The translations under genes were made by a program, and so were the position numbers. A stretch of DNA of 64,000 nt from Anaerolineae bacterium. Lineage in GTDB: Bacteria; Chloroflexota; Anaerolineae; CG2-30-64-16. The notes beneath the pieces are model-generated. The model worked only from the letters and a program-made list of their open reading frames with translations, had not been told where the DNA came from and ran no database searches. Below, one piece after another: positions 9,800 through 54,331 of the stretch. Within the stretch, counting starts at the first letter, position 1. Each line of letters starts with the position of its first letter. The stretch covers positions 660 to 64,659 of the forward strand of contig DAOUBP010000038.1 of assembly GCA_034432655.1 (NCBI GenBank), written 5' to 3'.

Positions 9800-9993
9800 T
9801 CCGTGATGCGTATTGCGTACTGCGTACTGCGTATTGCGTACTGCGTACTACGTATTGCGTATTGCGTACTGCGTGATGCATGATGCGTTAATTCGCTGAT
9901 TCGTCATTCGTCCTTCGTCCTTCGTCCTTCGTCCTTCGTCCTTCGTCATTCGTCCTTCGTCATTCGTCCTTCGTCCTTCGTCATTCGTCCTTC
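9800..9993. repeat. intergenic tandem arrays: CGTATTG/CGTACTG heptamers (9805-9885) then CGTCCTT/CGTCATT heptamers (9895-9993)
   Basis: direct reading, period 7, two families. Confidence 0.8.
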
Positions 9994-9994
9994 G

Positions 9995-11212
9995 TCAAGT
10001 AAGTGCAGTTTCGATCGCCTCTGCCACCCGCTCCAAATCCTCCTCCTCGATCACCAGCGGCGGGAGGAGGCGGAGGACGGTGGCGCCGGCGGGGAGGGCG
10101 AGGACGCCCAGGGCTTGCAGCCGCTGCAGGATGGGCGTGACTTTGACCTTCAGCTCGATGCCGATCAGCAGGCCCAGGCCACGCACCTCGCGGATGAGCG
10201 GCGAGTTGATGGCGCGCAGGCGGGCTTGCATGTGCTCGCCCAGCCGCGCGGCGCGTTGGGGGAGGATTTCGGTTGTAATCGTATCAATCGCCGCCAGCGC
10301 GGCCGCGCAGGCCAGCGGGTTGCCGCCGAAGGTGCTGCCGTGGGTCATGGGGCGAATGCCGGCGACACGCGGCCCGATCAGGCAGGCGCCCATCGGCAGG
10401 CCGCCAGCCATGGACTTGGCGACCGTCATCAGATCGGGAGCCAGGCCATAGTGCTCGCAGGCGAACAGCCGGCCCGTGCGACCGAAGCCGGTTTGGATCT
10501 CGTCCAGGATCAGCAGCGCGCCCCGCTCCCAGCAGACGCGCTGCGCCGTCTCCAGGAACCCGGGCGTCGCCGGGTGGACCCCGCCTTCGCCCTGCACGAC
10601 TTCCAGCAGCACCGCGGCCGTCTGGTCGGTCACCGCCCGTTCCAGCGCCGCACTGTCGTTGAACGGGATGTGGCTGAAGCCGGGCACCAGCGGCTCGAAG
10701 GGCTGGCGGTACTCGCGGTTCCACGTCGCCGACAGCGCGCCCAGAGTGCGACCGTGGAAGCCGCGCATGGCCGCCACGATCCCGCTGCGGCCGGTGCTCA
10801 GCCGGGCGAACTTGATGGCCGCCTCCACCGCCTCCGCACCGGAGTTGCACAGGAACGCGCGCTCCAGCCCGGCCGGCGCGATCGCGGTCAGGCGGGCCAG
10901 CAGCTCGGCGCGGCGGTCGTTGTAGAAGATCTCCGGGCAGGAGATGAGGGTGGCTGCCTGCCCGGCGATGGCCGCGACCACTGCCGGGTGCGCGTGGCCC
11001 AGGTTGGCCGCGCCCTGCCCGCCCACGCAGTCAATGTACTCCCGGCCCTCCGCGTCCCAGACCCGCGCGCCCTGTCCTCGCACGATCGCCAGCGGCCGCT
11101 TGGGGTAAACGCCGGAGGTGTGGCGCGATTCGAGGGAGAGGATGGTAGATTGGTAGGTTGGTAGATTGGTAGATTGGTAGGTTGGTGGGTGGATGGGACG
11201 AGTGTCAGTCAT
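9995..11212 (-). CDS. lysJ: class-III aminotransferase: [LysW]-aminoadipate semialdehyde / acetylornithine aminotransferase
   Basis: [45 protein letters not shown]; N-terminal ~30 aa ([22 protein letters not shown]) is encoded by the GGTAGRTT octamer array so the true start is uncertain. Confidence 0.8.
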
Positions 11213-12098: not shown

Positions 12099-12197
12099 GA
12101 GTGCTCCTGTTGCGTATTGCGTACTGCGTATTGCGTACTGCGTATCTTCTCCAGGCGGTACGCAGTACGAAGTACGAAGTACGAAGTACGGAGTATG
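12099..12197. repeat. inverted heptamer arrays (GCGTATTGCGTACTG... vs GTACGCAGTACGAAGTACG...) forming a long hairpin between lysY stop and lysZ start
   Basis: direct reading. Confidence 0.7.
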
Positions 12198-13253: not shown

Positions 13254-14212
13254 GGGCGGGCCTCCGGGGTGGTATTGCGTATTGCGTATTGCGTACTGCT
13301 TGCCGTTGAATGAGCAGTTCTCTCATGGTCTACGCAGTATGCAGTACGCAGTACGTACTCTGCCACCCGCGCCGGGATATCCACCCCCGTCGTGTGAATG
13401 CTGTTGCGGAACTCCATGGTGTGGTTCACCTCGTTGACCAGGAAGCCGCGATCGGGGTCTTCCAGCACGTCAATCGCGAGGACGCCGCCGCCCACGGCTG
13501 CCGCGGCCCGGCGGCAGAGGTCGTCCAGCTCCGGCGTCACCGGGCAGTTGGAGGCCTGGCCCCCGCGCGCGGTGTTGGTGATCCAGTGCGTCGAGCCCCG
13601 GTAGATCGCCGCGATGGTCTCGTCGCCCACGACGAAGGCGCGGATGTCGCGGCCGGGCTTGCGGATGTATTCCTGGATGTAGAAGATGCTGTGCAGGTAG
13701 TTGCCCAGCACCTCCTTGTGTTCCAGGATCGCCTCGGCCGCGTCCCGGTCGTTGATGCGGGCCAGCAGTCGGCCCCACGAGCCGACCAGCGGCTTGAGCA
13801 CGACCGGGTAGCCCAGTTCTTCGATGGCTTGCAAGGCCGCTTCGGGGGTGAAGGCCACGCGCGTGCGAGGCTGCGGGATGCCGGCCTCGGCCAGCGCCGC
13901 GCTGGTCAGCAGCTTGTCCCAGCACGTGGCCGCGGTGCGATAGGTGTTGACCGTGGGGATCCCGGCCGCCTGGAGCAGCCGCAGCGCATAGATGCCGCGT
14001 GCCGCGCTGACGGAGCGCTCGAGGACGATGTCGGCGCGGATGTTGTAGGGCGAGATTCCATCTCGCCCCACCGGCAGCACCAGCTCATCATCGTTTACCA
14101 GCTGCACCGTCGCGCCGGTGGCTTCCAGCGCGGCCAGCAGCAGCTTCTCCTCCACGCGGATGCGGGAGACGATCATCGCGACGGTGATCTGGGAGTGACC
14201 GTTCTTGCTCAT
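13250..14212 (-). CDS. lysX: RimK-type ATP-grasp ligase: alpha-aminoadipate--LysW ligase
   Basis: ATP-grasp motifs ([27 protein letters not shown]); start MSKNGHS 4 nt overlapped with lysW stop; C-terminal ~30 aa ([27 protein letters not shown]) repeat-encoded. Confidence 0.8.
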
Positions 14213-14379
14213 TCGCCCCAATCCTCCGCCTCTTCCGGCGCCAGGTCGAGGACCAGTGGGTCCAGCGACACCACCTCCAGCTCCGCGCCGCACGCCGGGC
14301 ACGGCACGATCTCCCCCTGCAACGGGTCGCGCAGGGTCACAGGACCTTCACATTCTGGACAGAGTGCTTCGCGTGACAT
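14209..14379 (-). CDS. lysW: LysW amino-group carrier protein (zinc-ribbon, C-terminal EDWGE)
   Basis: [16 protein letters not shown]...[10 protein letters not shown]...EEAEDWGE; perfect RBS aggagg 8 nt upstream; ORF-track ORF (to 14517) extended upstream through repeats by a TTG start. Confidence 0.85.
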
Positions 14380-14394
14380 GAGTGCCTCCTGATG

Positions 14395-14510
14395 ATGTGG
14401 GTTCGTACTGCGTATTGCGTACTGCGTATTGCGTGATTCGCCATTCGTTGATTCGTTGATTCGCTGATTCGCTGATTCGCCATTCGCTGATTCGTTGATT
14501 CGCCATTTCG
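14395..14510. repeat. 5' UTR of lysW built from heptamers (CGTACTG/CGTATTG) and ~12 octamers TGATTCG(C/T)
   Basis: direct reading. Confidence 0.75.
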
Positions 14511-14511
14511 C

Positions 14512-14841: not shown

Positions 14842-14869
14842 AGTATAACTAAAGTGCGCGATCTGTCAA
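14842..14869 (-). promoter_or_regulatory. sigma-70-type promoter TTGACA-N16-TATACT driving the leader/terminator region and lys operon
   Basis: minus strand TTGACAgatcgcgcactttagtTATACT. Confidence 0.5.
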
Positions 14870-14907
14870 ATTTCAAGTGTGGCCAACAAGACGATCAAAA
14901 CATCAGG

Positions 14908-15003
14908 CGGGGGCGGATGGGAGTCGAACCCACCTTGGACGCTTCCTAGGCGCCCATCACCGGTTTTGAAGACCGGGGCCGCCACCGGACGACAACCACC
15001 CCC
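14908..15003 (-). tRNA. selC: tRNA-Sec (selenocysteine), anticodon UCA, 96 nt, 8/5 acceptor/T-stem architecture with long variable arm
   Basis: GGGGGTGG-TT-GTCGTCCGGTGGCGGC-C-CCGGT-CUUCAAA-ACCGG-[26-nt variable arm]-GTGGG-TTCGACT-CCCAT-CCGCCCCC-G; aligns block-for-block with E. coli selC (TCGTCTCCGGTG..., CTTCAAA, TTCGACTCC). Confidence 0.85.
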
Positions 15004-15010
15004 ACACATG

Positions 15011-15039
15011 ATGATACACGACTTCGGTCAGATGGTCAA
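15011..15039 (-). promoter_or_regulatory. promoter for tRNA-Sec: TTGACC-N17-TATCAT, TSS ~7 nt upstream of tRNA 5' end
   Basis: minus strand TTGACCatctgaccgaagtcgtgTATCATcatgtgtG(+1). Confidence 0.55.
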
Positions 15040-15069
15040 AATGGTTGAAGTCGGCGCGTGTTCGTGGTA

Positions 15070-15222
15070 GAATAAATAAAATACTGCGTACTACTTACTG
15101 CGTATTGAGTGCTTCATGCGATCGCTCGCGCAATGTTTGTACGGAGTATGCAGTACGGAGTATGCAGTACGGAGTATGTAGTACGGAGTATGCAATACGG
15201 AGTATGTAGTACGGAGTTCGCC
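15070..15222. repeat. tandem GTACGGAGTATGCA(G/A) 14-mer (2x7) repeats upstream of AmrS gene
   Basis: direct reading. Confidence 0.75.
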
Positions 15223-16245
15223 ATGTCCCACCCCGCCATTCTCTGGGAACGACTGGGGCCCGACGACCTGCGGGTCCGCTGCAATCTGTGCGCGCACCAT
15301 TGTGTGATCGCGCCGGGCAAATTGGGGGTCTGCTGTGTGCGGGAGAACGTGGACGGCGAGTTGGTGACGCTGGTCTACGGTCGGGCGATTTCGCAACATG
15401 TAGATCCCATCGAGAAGAAACCGCTGTTCCATTTCCAGCCGGGCAGCAAGTCATACTCCATCGCCACGGTCGGCTGTAACTTTCAGTGTGCCTTCTGTCA
15501 GAACTGGGAGATCTCGCAGATGCCGCGTGAGGAGGGCGCCGTCATGGGGCGCTTCGTTGCCCCGGCTGAGGTCGCGCGCGCGGCCCGGCAGGCCGGCTGC
15601 GCTTCGGTGGCCTACACCTACACGGAGCCGACTATCTACGCCGAGTACGCGCTGGACTGTGCGCGGGAGGCGCAGAAATTGGGGCTGCGTAACGTGTTCG
15701 TCAGCAACGGCTATATGACGCCGGCGTTACTTGAGTTGATGGCGGGCCTGATTGACGGCATCAATGTTGACCTGAAGGCCGGCCGGGGCGAGTTCTACCG
15801 CAAGATATCGGGCGCGGGGTTGAAGGCCGTGTTGGAGAACCTGGTGCGCATCCACAAGTTGGGCATCTGGCTGGAGGTGACGACCCTGGTGATCCCCGGC
15901 CTCAATGACTCAGATGAGGAGCTGCGTTGGGCCGCGCGTTATCTGTACGACAACCTGGGGCCTGATGTGCCGTGGCATATCAGCCGCTTTTACCCGCACT
16001 ACAAGATGAGCGATGTGCCGCCCACCCCTGCCAAGACGCTCGAGCGTGCCTGGCAGATCGGCCGGGACGTGGGCCTGCACTACGTCTATGTGGGCAACCT
16101 GCCCGGCCATCACGCCGAGAGCACCTTCTGCCCTGGCTGCGGCGGCCTGGTCATCGAGCGCAGCGGCTACTGGCTCGGCCGGCGCAACCTGCGGGACGGC
16201 AAGTGCACTGCGTGCGGGACGGTCATCGCCGGCGTGGAGATGTGA
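15223..16245 (+). CDS. AmmeMemoRadiSam-system radical SAM enzyme (PflA-like)
   Basis: CNLCAHHCVI...CxxxC..C; VGCNFQCAFCQNWEIS; C-terminal CPGCGG...CTACG; adjacent AMMECR1 gene. Confidence 0.8.
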   Translation: MSHPAILWERLGPDDLRVRCNLCAHHCVIAPGKLGVCCVRENVDGELVTLVYGRAISQHVDPIEKKPLFHFQPGSKSYSIATVGCNFQCAFCQNWEISQMPREEGAVMGRFVAPAEVARAARQAGCASVAYTYTEPTIYAEYALDCAREAQKLGLRNVFVSNGYMTPALLELMAGLIDGINVDLKAGRGEFYRKISGAGLKAVLENLVRIHKLGIWLEVTTLVIPGLNDSDEELRWAARYLYDNLGPDVPWHISRFYPHYKMSDVPPTPAKTLERAWQIGRDVGLHYVYVGNLPGHHAESTFCPGCGGLVIERSGYWLGRRNLRDGKCTACGTVIAGVEM

Positions 16246-18061: not shown

Positions 18062-18258
18062 GAGAACCTCCGTACCTTTACTGAATACTGCGTATTGCGT
18101 ACTGCGTATTGCGTACTGCGTATTGCGTACTAAGTATTCCAAACTGCGTGCTGTTATGCAGCTTACCTCGCAACTGCGCCATACGGAGTACGGAGCACGG
18201 ACTACGAAGTACGGACTACGGAGTACGAAGTACGGACTACGGAGTACGCAATGCGTCG
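18062..18258. repeat. heptamer arrays in both orientations between acyl-CoA DH start and CoA-transferase B stop
   Basis: direct reading. Confidence 0.7.
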
Positions 18259-19338
18259 TTATCTGATGAGCAATCCCGTCGGATCAATTTCCCTCAAGAT
18301 CCTTCGTTCCTCCTCCGTCGGCGCGGCGGTGACGGCCAGCGGCTCGGCCACCGGGATCGGGAAGCTGCTGTTGGCCTGGATCTCCTCCACGGTGACGCCG
18401 GGGTGAACGGCCAATAGATACATGGTCCTGGTCGCTTCGTCGAAGCCGTAGACGCCCAGCTGCGTGATCACCCGATAGGGGCCGGTGTTCGCCGGCAGCC
18501 CTGCGCGCTCACGTGCGCCCGGACCGGTCAGATAGCCTGGGGTGGTGATAAAGTCCAGCTTCTCGGCGAACTTACGGCGGTCCTGGCGCATGATGATGAT
18601 GGTGCGATGGCAGGCCGAGCCTACGTCATTTGCCCCGCCGCTGCCGGGCAATCGGACCGTAGGGTGCTCCCAATCGCCGATCACGGTGGTGTTGATGTTG
18701 CCGTACGGGTCAATCTGCGCGGCGCCCAGGAAGCCGTAGTCCAGATGGCCGGCCTGGGCCATGGACATCACGTCGTGCATGCTCGAGGCGGCCACAGCCT
18801 GATGGAAGGTGCGCGAATCGCCCACGGAGATGGGCAGCACCGGGATGTGGGGGCCGATGCCGCCGGCTTCGAAGATAATCAACAGGCCCGGCGCGTGGGT
18901 GCGCTGCGCCAGCATGGCGGCGATCATAGGCAGCCCTGTGCCGACGAACACTGATTTACGGTCTTCCAGCAGGTGTGCCGCGACACAGGCGAGCAGCTCG
19001 GTGGAGGAATAAGGAGACGTGGAAGCAGGGAGACGCGAAGATTCTCCGCGTCCCCGCGTCTCCGCCTCCCCGTGTCCCCGCGTCCCCGCGTCCCCGCGTC
19101 CCCACGTCTCCGCCTCCCCGTGTCCCCGCGTCTCCGCGTCCCCGTGTCCCCGCGTCTCCGCGTCCCCGTGTCCCCGCGTCCCCGCGTCCCCGTGTCCCCG
19201 CGTCTTCGCGTCTCCGCGTCCCCGCATCCCCGCGTCCCCGTGTCCCCGCGTCTCCGCCTCCCCGCGTCCCCGCGTCTCCGCCTCCCCGCGTCCCCGCGTC
19301 TCCGCGTCCCCGCGCGCCTGCATCATCGGATCCTCCAT
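18259..19338 (-). CDS. CoA-transferase subunit B (glutaconate/3-oxoacid CoA-transferase beta-like) with ~80-aa N-terminal extension encoded by the TCCCCGCG octamer array
   Basis: VFVGTGLPMIAAMLAQRTHAPGLLIIFEAGG, AQIDPYGNINTTVIGD, GSGGANDVGS; no in-frame ATG/GTG/TTG between the repeat and the conserved domain. Confidence 0.7.
   Translation of the reverse strand: MEDPMMQARGDAETRGRGEAETRGRGEAETRGHGDAGMRGRGDAKTRGHGDAGTRGHGDAETRGHGDAETRGHGEAETWGRGDAGTRGHGEAETRGRGESSRLPASTSPYSSTELLACVAAHLLEDRKSVFVGTGLPMIAAMLAQRTHAPGLLIIFEAGGIGPHIPVLPISVGDSRTFHQAVAASSMHDVMSMAQAGHLDYGFLGAAQIDPYGNINTTVIGDWEHPTVRLPGSGGANDVGSACHRTIIIMRQDRRKFAEKLDFITTPGYLTGPGARERAGLPANTGPYRVITQLGVYGFDEATRTMYLLAVHPGVTVEEIQANSSFPIPVAEPLAVTAAPTEEERRILREIDPTGLLIR
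19016..19320. repeat. ~37 tandem octamers TC(C/T)CCG(C/T)G
   Basis: direct reading, period 8; translates as (R/G)GDAETRG in CoA-transferase B frame. Confidence 0.85.
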
Positions 19339-19703: not shown

Positions 19704-19912
19704 CCCTCCTCTCCGCGTCCCCGCGTCTCCGCGTCCCCGCGTCTCCGCGTCCCCGCGTCCCCGCGTCCCCGCGTCTCCGCGTCCCCGCGTCTCCGCGTCC
19801 CCGCGTCCCCGCGTCCCCGCGTCTCCGCGTCTCCGCGTCTCCACGTCCCCGCGTCTCCGCGTCTCCGCGTCCCCGCGTCCCCGTGTCTCCGCGTCTCCGC
19901 GTCTCCGCGTCT
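19704..19912. repeat. ~26 tandem octamers TC(C/T)CCGCG (same family and orientation as 19016-19320)
   Basis: direct reading. Confidence 0.85.
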
Positions 19913-19914
19913 CC

Positions 19915-20901: not shown

Positions 20902-21031
20902 TGCTCACCTCCGGAGAGACTACGGCGTACTCCGTGTTCCGTGCTACGTACTACGTAGTGCTTCAACCATCGAGGGATCGCGATTCAAGGAATACGCAGT
21001 ACGCAGTACGCGACACGCAATACGCAATACG

Positions 21032-21664
21032 CTATACTTCCAGCCCCACCAACTCCGGTTCCCCCCACACGGCCCAGGCCCATTGGTGTTCGCCCAAGCC
21101 GTCGGTGGCGAAGGCCAGGCGCAGGATACTTCCGGCCTGGAAGGGCAACGCCACTTCGAACGGGTCCCAGGCCCGTGGGTAGGCGGCCCGACTCCACACC
21201 TGCCAGCCGTCCACTTTGATGCGAAAGGCGACCAGCTGCTCTGCGCCCTGCGCGCCATCGCGGATGCCGATGCTGAAACGCAGGCGCAGGTCTTGCAGGC
21301 CGGCCGGGACGGGCACGTGGAACTCGACCAGCGCCTCGCCGCTGACCGGGGGATGCTGCCAAAGCGCGGGCCGACGTTGACCGCCTACGCTGGCCTCGCC
21401 GATCTTAACTTCCATCCCTGCCGCGTCCTCGCGGCCGCCAGAACGGCTGGCCACAGCGCGCACGTCGGCCTCCGCAAAGTGTTCCAGGAAATTGAAGCAC
21501 CAGGGCCGGCCTGCTTTTGCGCCCTCTGCCGGGTTGCGGTGTCCGGCTCGCCAGCGCAGAAAAGCGATGTACTCGGCCACCCGCTCCTGATCTGGTGGCG
21601 AAAGGGTGGTAAGGTCACGCAGGATCGTTTCTAGGGGAGTCATCATGATGTCGTCACCGGCCAT
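21032..21664 (-). CDS. hypothetical protein
   Basis: ORF only; no recognisable motif. Confidence 0.4.
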   Translation of the reverse strand: MAGDDIMMTPLETILRDLTTLSPPDQERVAEYIAFLRWRAGHRNPAEGAKAGRPWCFNFLEHFAEADVRAVASRSGGREDAAGMEVKIGEASVGGQRRPALWQHPPVSGEALVEFHVPVPAGLQDLRLRFSIGIRDGAQGAEQLVAFRIKVDGWQVWSRAAYPRAWDPFEVALPFQAGSILRLAFATDGLGEHQWAWAVWGEPELVGLEV

Positions 21665-22417: not shown

Positions 22418-22526
22418 GGAACAGGCTCCTTGTATGGCAAAGCAAATGGACGAATCAGCAAATCACGCATCACGAGTTACGCAATACGCAGTACGCAGTA
22501 CGCAATACGCAGTACGCAATACGTCC

Positions 22527-39603: not shown

Positions 39604-40119
39604 TCAAAGGATCAGGAGCTGGCCGAGATGGCGAAAGACAGCTTCTACGTTGGCTCCTGTTTTGGCGCTGGTAAGATAGTAGGGTGCGTGGAGCGCTGCT
39701 GCCCGGCCGGCGATCTCTTCGTCCGCCACCTGACGTTGCTCTCGCAGGTCTTCTTTGTTGCCGGCGATAATCAGCCGGGCGCCGGGGTTGATCCGCTGCA
39801 GTTCGGCCGCGTAGCACGGGACACTGTCCAGGCTGGCCGGCCGGGTCAAATCGCACACGATAATAGCGCCGGCTGCTCCGCGCAGATAGCTGGCCCGTAT
39901 CACGTCATATTCCTCACTGCCTGCCAGGTCCCACAAGATCAGCGTGAGTTCCACCAGGTCACCGTTGCGCGGGAGGACGATCACTTTGCGACTGACCTTA
40001 ACCCCGATCGTGCTGAGGTATTTGTCGTCGAACAGATTGTAGACGAAGCGACGCACCAGGCTGGTTTTGCCCACCGCGTAATCGCCCAATAAGCAGACTT
40101 TCTTGCTTAGCGAGATCAA
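39604..40119 (-). CDS. Ras-superfamily small GTPase (MglA/Rup-like)
   Basis: G1 GDYAVGKT, G3 WDLAGSEEY, G4 AGNKEDL, G5 TSAK. Confidence 0.8.
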   Translation of the reverse strand: MISLSKKVCLLGDYAVGKTSLVRRFVYNLFDDKYLSTIGVKVSRKVIVLPRNGDLVELTLILWDLAGSEEYDVIRASYLRGAAGAIIVCDLTRPASLDSVPCYAAELQRINPGARLIIAGNKEDLREQRQVADEEIAGRAAALHAPYYLTSAKTGANVEAVFRHLGQLLIL

Positions 40120-51986: not shown

Positions 51987-52421
51987 ATGTCGCAACGATC
52001 TATTCTCGCTCTTGCCCTCGCCCTGCTCGGCGCCCTGCTGTTGGCCGCTTGCGCCGGCCGCGGGCAAGCCGACAGCACGGTGAAGCTGGCCCCGGTTTCA
52101 ACATTGCCCGGAGAAATCCAGCGCGCGCCGGCCGCGGTCCGCACGGCCTATCAGTTCGCTCTGGCCAACCCGGACGCACTGGCGAACGTGCCGTGCTACT
52201 GCGGCTGCGGCGCGATCGGGCACCGGAGCAACCTGGCCTGCTACGTCAAGGAGTTCGGCCCCGACGGGCGGCCGGTCTTCGACGACCACGCGCTGGGGTG
52301 CAGCATCTGCGTGGACATCGCCACCGATGTCATGAAGATGAGCGGCGAGGGCAAGGCGCCGGCCGAGATCCGCCAGCGGATCGTGGACGCCTACAGCAAG
52401 TTCGGGCCGGGGAACCAGTGA
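51987..52421 (+). CDS. PCYCGC-motif lipoprotein
   Basis: lipobox LLLAAC; NVPCYCGCGAIGH...LGCSICVDI. Confidence 0.75.
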   Translation: MSQRSILALALALLGALLLAACAGRGQADSTVKLAPVSTLPGEIQRAPAAVRTAYQFALANPDALANVPCYCGCGAIGHRSNLACYVKEFGPDGRPVFDDHALGCSICVDIATDVMKMSGEGKAPAEIRQRIVDAYSKFGPGNQ

Positions 52422-52442
52422 CCGGGCGACAAGGTGACAAGG

Positions 52443-52611
52443 TGACAAGGTGTATCTGCAGACGCCCGTGCTGTTGATCGGCCTGGTCGCGGCGATGGCC
52501 CTGGCGCTGCGCACAGCGCGGCAGCACGATCAGCCGCCGCGCGCGGCCCTGCCCGTCGCGTTCTTCTGTGTCGCGGCGACGTTGGGGCTGCTGGGCCTGT
52601 ATCTGGGATAA
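52443..52611 (+). CDS. possible small two-TM membrane protein (GTG start)
   Basis: hydrophobic 54-codon ORF between PCYCGC and cupredoxin genes, preceded by GACAAGGT x2.5 repeat. Confidence 0.2.
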
Positions 52612-52663
52612 GGACGTGCCAGGCACTTGGGAAGTGCCTGGCACGCAAGATCTCGCTTGAGCC

Positions 52664-53692
52664 ATGAACCGCAACGCTGAGCATTTCGCTCTCGCACTTC
52701 TGCTGCTGGCGCTCGCGGCCCTGCCGATCGGCATCTTCGGCTATCGGGCATGGCGGCTGGGGCCGGCCGCGGCCGGCGTCCGGGTGATCGAGATCACGGC
52801 GCGCGCGCCGGAACAGGGCGGCTTCCATCCCGACCGGCTGACCTTTCGGGCCGGCGAGACGGTGCGGCTGCGCATCACTTCGCCCGATGTCGTGCATGGA
52901 CTGGTCATCCCCGGCCTGGGGATCGAGATCAACGAAATCTACCCCGGCAAGGTCGTCGAGGTGGATGTGACGCCGACCCGGCCGGGCCGCTACGCCTTCG
53001 CCTGCACGCGCTGGTGCGGCGCGGATCACTGGCGCATGCGCGGGGTGATCGAGGTGGTGGACCCGACCCCCCGGCCCCCTTCCCTTTCAGGGGAGGACTC
53101 GGGGGAGAGGTCGTCGGAGGCGCCACTCTACCAACAGCTCGGCCTCGACCTGGACGCCATGCGCCACGCGGCGGCCACGACGCCCGCGGCCCGGCCCTCG
53201 GCAGCGGCCGCCGCGACATGGTCCGGCCGCCTCCCGGCCGATCTGGCCGATCCGCGCGCGCGGCGCGCCATCGCCCCGGCCGACGCGTTTCGCCGCCTGC
53301 GGGCCGATCCGGCCAACGCCGACCTGAGCGACGCCGACTTGTGGGATCTGGTTGCCTGGGCGTGGTTCAAGGATGTGGACGAGAAGGCGCTGACGCGTGC
53401 GGCCGCGCTCTACGCCCGCGATTGCGCGGCGTGTCATGGCGAGGGCGGCGCCGGGGACGGCCCGGCCGGGGCGAATCTGCCGGGCATGGCCAAGATGGAT
53501 CCCATGATGCCCCGCGGCCCGGCCGACTTCACCGACGCCAGGGCCATGCTGACAGCCAGCGACGCGCTGCTCCAGGGCAAGCTCTTGCGCGGGGGCGTGG
53601 GCACCGGCATGCCGGAGTTCGGCTCGCTCTACACCGACGCGGAGCTATGGGCGATGGTCGCCTATCTCAGGGCCTTCCTGTTTGGGAAGTAG
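52664..53692 (+). CDS. cupredoxin (CuA, cytochrome oxidase subunit II-like) fused to C-terminal cytochrome c
   Basis: TM; HGLVIPGLGIEINEIYPGK; CuA-like CTRWCGADHWRM; heme site CAACHGEGG. Confidence 0.7.
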   Translation: MNRNAEHFALALLLLALAALPIGIFGYRAWRLGPAAAGVRVIEITARAPEQGGFHPDRLTFRAGETVRLRITSPDVVHGLVIPGLGIEINEIYPGKVVEVDVTPTRPGRYAFACTRWCGADHWRMRGVIEVVDPTPRPPSLSGEDSGERSSEAPLYQQLGLDLDAMRHAAATTPAARPSAAAAATWSGRLPADLADPRARRAIAPADAFRRLRADPANADLSDADLWDLVAWAWFKDVDEKALTRAAALYARDCAACHGEGGAGDGPAGANLPGMAKMDPMMPRGPADFTDARAMLTASDALLQGKLLRGGVGTGMPEFGSLYTDAELWAMVAYLRAFLFGK

Positions 53693-53856: not shown

Positions 53857-54033
53857 ATGCCTTCAAGGGCCAATCAACTGCCAAAAGACGCCAAAGCCGG
53901 CGCTGCGCCCACGACGACGCGTCGGCTGCTGCCGATCGTTGCCCTCGTCGCGGCGGTGCTGCTCATCGCCGCGGGGATCGTGTTGGCGCGCTGTCAACAT
54001 GCCGCGGCTGGCCGTGGACCGCACGCGGATTGA
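53857..54033 (+). CDS. small membrane-anchor ORF (58 aa) in frame 0, probably the N-terminal TM anchor of the DUF1573 gene separated by a -1 frame shift
   Basis: excellent RBS taaggagg; TM LLPIVALVAAVLLIAAGIVLA; overlaps start of next ORF. Confidence 0.45.
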   Translation: MPSRANQLPKDAKAGAAPTTTRRLLPIVALVAAVLLIAAGIVLARCQHAAAGRGPHAD

Positions 54034-54331
54034 TTTCGGCAAGGTGCCGCTCGACGTGCCGGTGCGGGCCACCTTCCGGCTGAGCAATATCGGCGATCGG
54101 CCGCTCAAGCTCCTCAACCAGCCGGTCGTCGAAGTCAAGCAGGGCTGCTGACCGCCCCGGCCGGTCGTCGGTGCGACGACCTTGCAGCCCGGACAGAGCA
54201 CGCAGCTCGCGATGGAATTCATGATGCACAAAGGCATGGAAGGCCCGCACGACTTTCGGGTGCGGCTCAAGACGAACGATCCCGTGACGCCGGAGGTGGA
54301 GCTGGTGGTGCTCTCGGATTGGGGGAAGTGA
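53999..54331 (+). CDS. DUF1573-domain protein with in-frame UGA (54149-54151) - candidate selenoprotein, or recent pseudogene
   Basis: RIDFGKVPLDVPVRATFRLSNIGDRPLKLL...KQGC-UGA-...PGQSTQL...FRVRLKTNDPVTPEVELVV matches DUF1573 on both sides of UGA; 7-bp stem-loop 54163-54181 exactly 11 nt 3' of UGA. Confidence 0.4.

Follow-up and report, generated by a model that had tools for sequence, protein, structure and literature searches.

The 64-kb stretch of DNA analysed here (the window), from an uncultured member of the Anaerolineales (Chloroflexota), carries what is very probably a functional bacterial selC gene encoding a tRNA-Sec of the 8/5 type, a reading to which we give a probability of roughly 0.9. 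The gene is an ordinary, intact member of a known family. Its presence in Anaerolineales is expected and not surprising, since roughly 21.5% of bacteria with sequenced genomes use selenocysteine (Sec) (PMC5029168), and earlier work on Chloroflexi had described both selenoproteins (PMC1794560) and formate dehydrogenases that contain Sec (PMC5736913). The earlier note on this DNA had called Sec decoding uncommon, which is not borne out by these surveys. Its suggestion that the gene made a selenoprotein hunt worthwhile proved sound, as the same window contains a conserved gene with an in-frame TGA, a cysteine (Cys) homologue and a SECIS-like hairpin. We consider the tRNA routine, and the conserved gap between its -10 box and its first nucleotide the more interesting point.

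The tRNA gene and its anticodon are located as follows.

14908..15003, minus strand: tRNA-Sec gene (selC), identified by ARAGORN, Rfam RF01852 (71.9 bits), a minimum free energy (MFE) cloverleaf and covariation in 22 sequences
14967..14969, minus strand: anticodon UCA (tRNA positions 35-37), which reads UGA; reported by ARAGORN as tca at position 35, within the loop CUUCAAA

The gene is 96 nt long and runs from G1 at 15003 to the discriminator base G73 at 14908. The earlier note had given the same length and UCA anticodon, but had left the minus strand unstated. It had also named two checks on the identity of the tRNA, and both came out in favour of tRNA-Sec. ARAGORN, run over the whole window, identified a single tRNA, at 14906-15003 of the minus strand, and typed it as tRNA-SeC (anticodon TCA) and not as a tRNA-Ser or tRNA-Leu. 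The Rfam covariance model for tRNA-Sec (RF01852) matched positions 14909-15003 of the minus strand with E = 9.4e-13; its score of 71.9 bits exceeds the gathering score of 47. This match is full-length (model positions 1-91) and was also recovered in a sensitive local scan.

The unconstrained MFE structure of the 96 nt is a cloverleaf (-47.2 kcal/mol). Its acceptor stem is 8 bp long (GGGGGUGG/CCGCCCCC, with one U:G pair) and is followed by a linker of 2 nt. The D stem has 6 bp (GUCGUC/GGCGGC) and closes a 4-nt loop (CGGU). Beyond it lie a 5-bp anticodon stem with a 7-nt loop, a variable-arm stem of 7 bp (6 bp in the consensus fold) and a 5-bp T stem in which the first pair is G:U. In both the MFE and the consensus fold, the acceptor and T stems form a 13-bp domain in the 8/5 arrangement. 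G73, which is an identity element for seryl-tRNA synthetase (SerRS), is kept in 22 of 22 aligned sequences. The bases that follow it (14907-14906) are CC and the next base is T, so the terminal A of the CCA end is not encoded. A scan of the region for an intrinsic terminator 3' of selC found none. The window gene has all of the sequence-level features of a bacterial tRNA-Sec.

Comparative data support this assignment. Five species-representative MAGs (L002-L006), each labelled as Anaerolineales or Anaerolineae, contain the 5' 44 nt of the gene without a mismatch; none of them has flanks identical to those of the window. A looser metagenome scan, in which the D-arm and anticodon loop served as the query, yielded 33 further loci, and ARAGORN called tRNA-SeC in all 32 of these with a complete tRNA (the copy in L031 is cut by the end of the locus). 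The total set comprises 38 selC-bearing loci (33 metagenome and five genome loci), and 38/38 D-arm-matched matches with a complete tRNA were called SeC. We aligned the 21 unique tRNA sequences with Escherichia coli selC, giving 22 sequences in all, and RNAalifold returned the same 8/5 cloverleaf as the consensus. Double compensatory changes were present in 21 of 30 pairs, where a pair was counted if at least one sequence had both sides changed with pairing kept; they include acceptor pairs 3, 4, 6, 7 and 8 and pairs of the T stem. The stem lengths and long variable arm that had been read from the letters alone therefore agree with both the fold and the covariation. In three loci from other lineages (L025, L028 and L052) selC adjoins selA-selB, and in L028 selD as well, which independently ties this tRNA family to the Sec machinery. 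The window tRNA differs from its nearest relatives at one base, which lies in the unpaired linker joining the anticodon stem to the variable arm; L042 and L043 have the same variant.

The elements that surround selC are listed below.

15011..15016, minus strand: -10 hexamer TATCAT, ending 7 nt before G1 (promoter scan; conservation)
15034..15039, minus strand: -35 hexamer TTGACC, with a 17-nt spacer (promoter scan; conservation)
15045..15073, plus strand: divergent promoter-like site TTGAAG-17-(TG)TAGAAT, facing amrS (promoter scan; conservation)
15223..16245, plus strand: amrS, AmmeMemoRadiSam radical SAM enzyme (TIGR04337, 372 bits)
14209..14379, minus strand: lysW, an open reading frame (ORF) ending in EDWGE (ORF; Pfam hits for neighbours)

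The promoter that the earlier note had proposed, TTGACC-17-TATCAT (15039..15011, minus strand), was recovered by our scan with 10/12 matches, in a 2-kb region with three promoter-like sites against 0.8 expected. Its boxes are conserved in five other Anaerolineales species in which the surrounding flanks diverge. A TAT(C/A/G)AT box lies 6-7 nt upstream of G1 in all six species (the window and L002-L006), and four of them (the window, L003, L005 and L006) also have TTGACC, separated from this box by 17-18 nt. The hexamers, a spacing within 16-18 nt and conservation in relatives are as in sigma-70-type promoters. On this evidence selC is a stand-alone transcription unit with its own predicted sigma-70-type promoter, and it would be transcribed alone, back-to-back with the divergent promoter of amrS.

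An invariant 10-nt block, ATTCTACCAC on the selC strand and GTGGTAGAAT on the plus strand (15060-15069), forms the extended -10 element facing amrS. This block is kept in 6/6 species (the window and its equivalents in L002-L006), while the other intergenic sequence beyond the selC boxes is unalignable. The partner gene of amrS, AMMECR1, follows it. Divergent pairing of amrS and selC is found in all five related species (L002-L006), where AmrS is 74-88% identical by tblastn; the 3' flank of selC differs in each of the related species. The linkage to selC raised the idea that amrS might itself encode a selenoprotein, which we rejected because its 340-aa ORF is uninterrupted and has Cys throughout.

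Downstream of selC, on the same strand, lysW is the first gene of a LysW/X/Y/Z/J operon for lysine synthesis by the AAA pathway, in the order lysW-lysX-lysY-lysZ-lysJ / homocitrate synthase / homoaconitase / homoisocitrate dehydrogenase / LysK. A separate promoter close to consensus, TTGACA-16-TATACT (14869..14842, minus strand, 11/12 matches), precedes lysW. It follows selC after 39 nt, and ~460 nt separate it from lysW, leaving a long leader with tandem repeats. A sensitive Rfam pass found no riboswitch in the leader, even at E<=1, and only sub-threshold chance matches over the flanks of selC.

Repeats are a wider characteristic of the window. Many intergenic regions contain short tandem arrays with a 7-nt unit, for example (TGCGTAC)n, (TTCGTCC)n, (TACGGAG)n and (GTACGGAGTATGCA)n, at 9807-9996, 12110-12195, 14404-14511, 15139-15217, 18079-18248, 20991-21037 and 22465-22523. 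One array is located between selC and amrS, and the related MAG L003 has GATTGCG repeats at the equivalent place. The arrays resemble the STRR heptamer repeats of cyanobacteria and appear to be a feature of the lineage. Two long arrays with an 8-nt unit, (CCGCGTCC) x 33 and (TCTCCGCG) x 25, at 19046-19314 and 19710-19914, flank or enter the N-terminal part of a CoA-transferase gene (18259-19338), where they give a spurious repeat-type Pfam match. Elsewhere in the window, a gene at 39604-40119 (minus strand) encodes a 171-aa protein with a strong match to the eukaryote-type Ras family (PF00071, E 1e-37); it adjoins genes for a PAS histidine kinase and an SH3_3-domain protein.

The TGA-containing gene sits in an unannotated stretch between a cupredoxin/cytochrome c gene (52664-53692) and an FGGY kinase gene (54523 onwards). 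A permissive read-through rescan found no other TGA candidates in the window outside the accepted genes. Its parts are as follows.

53999..54331, plus strand: candidate DUF1573-domain selenoprotein, from an internal ATG to the true stop (translation; Pfam; homologues)
54149..54151, plus strand: in-frame TGA, predicted to be read as Sec, aligned with the TGC (Cys) codon of P0001/L012
54163..54181, plus strand: SECIS-like hairpin GGUCGUCG-GUG-CGACGACC, 11-12 nt after the UGA (fold; conservation; synonymous sites)
53857..54033, plus strand: membrane-anchor N-terminal part, now in another frame (DNA alignment with L009; P0003 sequence)

The plus-strand frame reads ...IDFGKVPLDVPVRATFRLSNIGDRPLKLLNQPVVEVKQGC, then the TGA at 54149-54151, then PPRPVVGATTLQPGQS...KTNDPVTPEVELVVLSDWGK, and closes at a TGA stop (54329-54331). 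The motif around the predicted Sec residue is VEVKQGC-U-PPRPVVGATT. When U is written as C, the protein scores 33.7 bits against Pfam DUF1573 (PF07610), above the gathering score of 26.1. The best NCBIfam match is to the OS_HP2 family (seleno)protein and is weak (23.6 bits against a cutoff of 100). We rejected membership of this family (NF041425) on that score and because the motif is GC-U and not U-G-C.

A search of protein databases returned 66 homologues, 62 of them confined to the first 45% of the query. Almost all of these 62 are 110-116 aa long, and the 14 that we retrieved all end at VEVK(Q/A)GC; public records give the 'GC-U' homologue as a hypothetical protein of ~112 aa. In one full-length homologue, P0001, the sequence is GCCPPEAVVGATTL and the residue aligned with the TGA is Cys. 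In seven independent relatives checked at the DNA level (L009, L013, L015, L017, L018, L019 and L020), the called stop is TGA in 7/7, and the frame beyond it runs for ~59 conserved codons to the true stop in all seven. Counting the window, TGA is present in 8/8 Sec forms.

The hairpin core of the relatives, GUCGUCG-GU(G/U)-CGACGAC, starts 12-13 nt after the UGA. The window stem is one bp longer, and the 7-bp core is invariant in 8/8 Sec forms. In so GC-rich a sequence its folding energy does not differ significantly from background (z = -0.26), and the hairpin also encodes the conserved VVG(A/S)TT, so we tested synonymous sites instead, counting positions with an invariant, degenerate amino acid. 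Synonymous variation was found at 1/14 positions in codons -10 to +12 but at 18/24 further downstream (Fisher p = 1e-4), and at 0/5 within the hairpin (p = 0.004). Such frozen synonymous sites are what a constraint on the RNA itself, for instance a SECIS element, would be expected to leave.

Together, these data point to a lineage-wide DUF1573 'GC-U' selenoprotein that has been mis-annotated as truncated and of which the window holds a disrupted copy. We regard it as a modest addition to the known selenoproteins. If read correctly, a conserved protein has been cut at its Sec codon by gene callers in dozens of public Anaerolineae records. The practical value of the finding is in annotation, since the presence of selC justifies re-annotating DUF1573 and other UGA-containing genes.

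Two homologues with another residue at the Sec position were also observed. The Cys form P0001 (L012:3395-3907) keeps the SECIS-like hairpin, in which a compensatory synonymous pair of changes (GTC to GTT and ACG to ACA) preserves pairing. Retention of the hairpin suggests that Sec was replaced by Cys only recently or that the hairpin has a further role. P0002 (146 aa, NCBI) has Trp (GCW) at this position followed by diverging sequence, probably because TGA has changed to TGG or because the record contains a sequencing or frameshift error.

The DUF1573 gene is the last of a conserved Anaerolineae operon (PCYCGC, COX2-like, Fer4_5, cupredoxin-cytochrome c, DUF1573). The window copy keeps the Sec-TGA, the hairpin and the C-terminal part, but differs from its closest relative, L009 (~97% DNA identity), by a 44-nt deletion (~53987/53988) between GCGCGC direct repeats. 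As a result of this deletion the membrane anchor (ATG 53857) is split from, and out of frame with, the domain. The deletion could be real decay to a pseudogene, a population variant or an assembly artefact. The copper-related operon is also shorter in the window (51987-53692) than in L012, L013, L015 and L019. Genes for a COX2-like protein (~150 aa) and a Fer4_5 / NosR-NapH-like protein (~450 aa), which in relatives lie between the PCYCGC and cupredoxin-cytochrome c genes, are absent. The PCYCGC protein is a member of the CYCXC (OS_HP4) family, in which selenoproteins are known, and the window copy is a Cys form.

We searched for the remainder of the Sec machinery in the window by comparing its ~55 genes against Pfam and by tblastn with E. 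coli SelA, SelB and SelD, and found no selA, selB or selD in the 64 kb. The tblastn searches likewise returned nothing from five related selC loci or from 124 kb of related selenoprotein loci. These genes presumably lie elsewhere in the source genome. In the established pathway, tRNA-Sec is charged with serine by SerRS, SelA converts Ser-tRNA-Sec to Sec-tRNA-Sec using selenophosphate from SelD, and SelB delivers the product to UGA codons followed by a SECIS hairpin. The window tRNA would be charged and converted in the same way, and the DUF1573 gene provides the lineage with at least one gene that has an in-frame UGA, a Cys homologue and a downstream SECIS-like hairpin. On this reading, selC places the genome among the approximately one-fifth of bacteria that decode UGA as selenocysteine.

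Two other accounts of the gene's function were weighed against this one. A genome that is losing Sec use might retain an intact tRNA gene with no selenoprotein left to serve. Such a relic would fit the frameshift in the window's only Sec gene, the operon's lack of the COX2-small and Fer4_5 genes of relatives, and the failure to find Sec machinery in the window. It would fit less well with a tRNA that is one unpaired-linker base away from its relatives, in a variant that is itself shared, and that retains an intact promoter; moreover, 64 kb is a small fraction of a genome, and a deletion between direct repeats could be an artefact of assembly or of the population. We consider a relic improbable. 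We give far less credence still to a tRNA-Sec-like UGA decoder that does not insert Sec, whether an allo-tRNA or a selC-like tRNA that carries Ser or Cys, although tRNAs of this kind turned up in metagenome searches for tRNA-Sec according to PMC5389517. Allo-tRNAs as described there have a 12-bp acceptor branch (8/4 or 9/3) in which the T stem is shortened, whereas the 8-bp acceptor stem and 5-bp T stem of the window tRNA sum to 13 bp. The 6-bp D stem, G73 and UCA anticodon also argue against such a decoder, and the client gene has the Cys homologue and hairpin that are expected for SelB-dependent decoding. A functional selC that supports Sec insertion is the preferred reading.

How the 5' end of the tRNA is formed is a separate question, which bears on processing and not on the identity of the gene. 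The earlier note had placed the transcription start site (TSS) ~7 nt upstream of the tRNA, but that distance is the one between G1 and the end of the -10 box. Bacterial RNA polymerase favours initiation 7-8 nt downstream of the -10 box, at a purine (+1) preceded by a pyrimidine (-1). We took 24 non-redundant upstream regions from all selC loci, which are phylogenetically non-independent, and located the best -10-like hexamer within 40 nt of each gene. It ends 6-7 nt before G1 in 16/24, against a mean of 1.1 and a maximum of 6 in 2000 shuffles, and in 14 of these 16 genes a TTG is also found at -35, across a spacer of 16-18 nt. Position -1 is a pyrimidine in 23/24, and +1 is G in all 24. From the position of the -10 box, the pyrimidine at -1 and the G at +1, we infer that the selC TSS is at G1 or 1-2 nt upstream. 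As a control, we located the -10 box of a tRNA-Gln gene in L017, an Anaerolineae relative, and it lies 31 nt upstream; this gene is the sole informative one of only three usable non-Sec control tRNAs in the loci analysed, too few to establish that the short gap is specific to selC. A near-leaderless selC transcript in several lineages is thus a well-defined hypothesis about predicted promoter geometry.

The alternative is that selC has a conventional precursor, started a few nt upstream of G1 or at a distant promoter, with RNase P making the 8-bp stem and the close -10 box signifying only a very short leader. RNase P does make this stem in E. coli, by atypical cleavage (Burkard & Soll 1988, as cited in PMC13449736). 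A canonical start 7 nt after the -10 box would fall on the base before G1, and in 8/24 genes the best -10 is not at an offset of 6-7 nt. Set against these points, the offset recurs across lineages with unrelated flanks far beyond the shuffled expectation, and the bases at -1 and +1 favour initiation at G1. We judge the odds of a conventional precursor to be about even. The combined proposal, in which selC genes sharing this D-arm in Anaerolineales and several other bacterial lineages initiate at the mature G1 and the Anaerolineae 'GC-U' DUF1573 proteins are an unrecognised selenoprotein subfamily recorded as truncated, is advanced only tentatively, and we lean somewhat against both halves holding.

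DUF1573 selenoproteins have already been catalogued, with the motif 'UGC' (PMC9312934, PMC13188914), and OS_HP2 was first reported in PMC1976440. The window gene resembles the DUF1573/OS_HP2 selenoproteins (PF07610) in scoring above the DUF1573 gathering score and in having OS_HP2 as its best NCBIfam match. It differs in that the predicted Sec follows the Cys ('GC-U-PP') where the catalogued proteins have it in 'UGC', and, unlike the catalogued kind, it is membrane-anchored and last in a PCYCGC/cupredoxin-cytochrome c operon. For selC, the tRNAs of selC-selA-selB clusters (in mycobacteria, PMC13449736, and in L025, L028 and L052) belong to the same family and have an identical D-arm. In contrast to those clusters, the Anaerolineales-type gene is unlinked to sel genes and is divergently paired with amrS.

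E. coli selC (b3658) and the window gene agree in the UCA anticodon, the 8/5 arrangement of acceptor and T stems, the 6-bp D stem and its 4-nt loop, the long variable arm, G73 and a G:U pair at the start of the T stem, and their D-arms, anticodon loops and T-loops are nearly identical. The block-level identity to E. coli selC claimed in the earlier note is fair for those regions, but generous for the gene as a whole. In a direct alignment with the K-12 gene, 69/96 positions are identical (~70%), and exact blocks are confined to the D-arm (GTCGTC, TCCGGTG, GGCGGC), the anticodon loop (CTTCAAA) and the T-loop (GGTTCGACTCC); a blastn search of the window tRNA against 5,426 E. coli genomes gave no match. 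The E. coli gene encodes its CCA end, where the window has G-CC-T, and its TATAAT box is 32 nt upstream with a leader of ~25 nt, compared with a gap of 7 nt in the window.

If the 6-7 nt gap does reflect initiation at G1, it would represent a second bacterial route to the unusual 8-bp acceptor stem, with the stem set by initiation, a 5'-triphosphate, no leader and no atypical RNase P cleavage. Work by Lee et al. in 1987 is said to have shown that eukaryotic tRNA-Sec genes are transcribed from +1 without a 5' leader. The eukaryotic genes differ in using Pol III upstream elements and a 9/4 fold, where the window has a bacterial sigma-70-type promoter, as predicted, and an 8/5 fold. In eukaryotes the 5' end of tRNA-Sec is set by initiation and not by RNase P; the same would hold here if the predicted TSS at G1 is right, and the Anaerolineales gene would then be a bacterial parallel to leaderless eukaryotic tRNA-Sec transcription.
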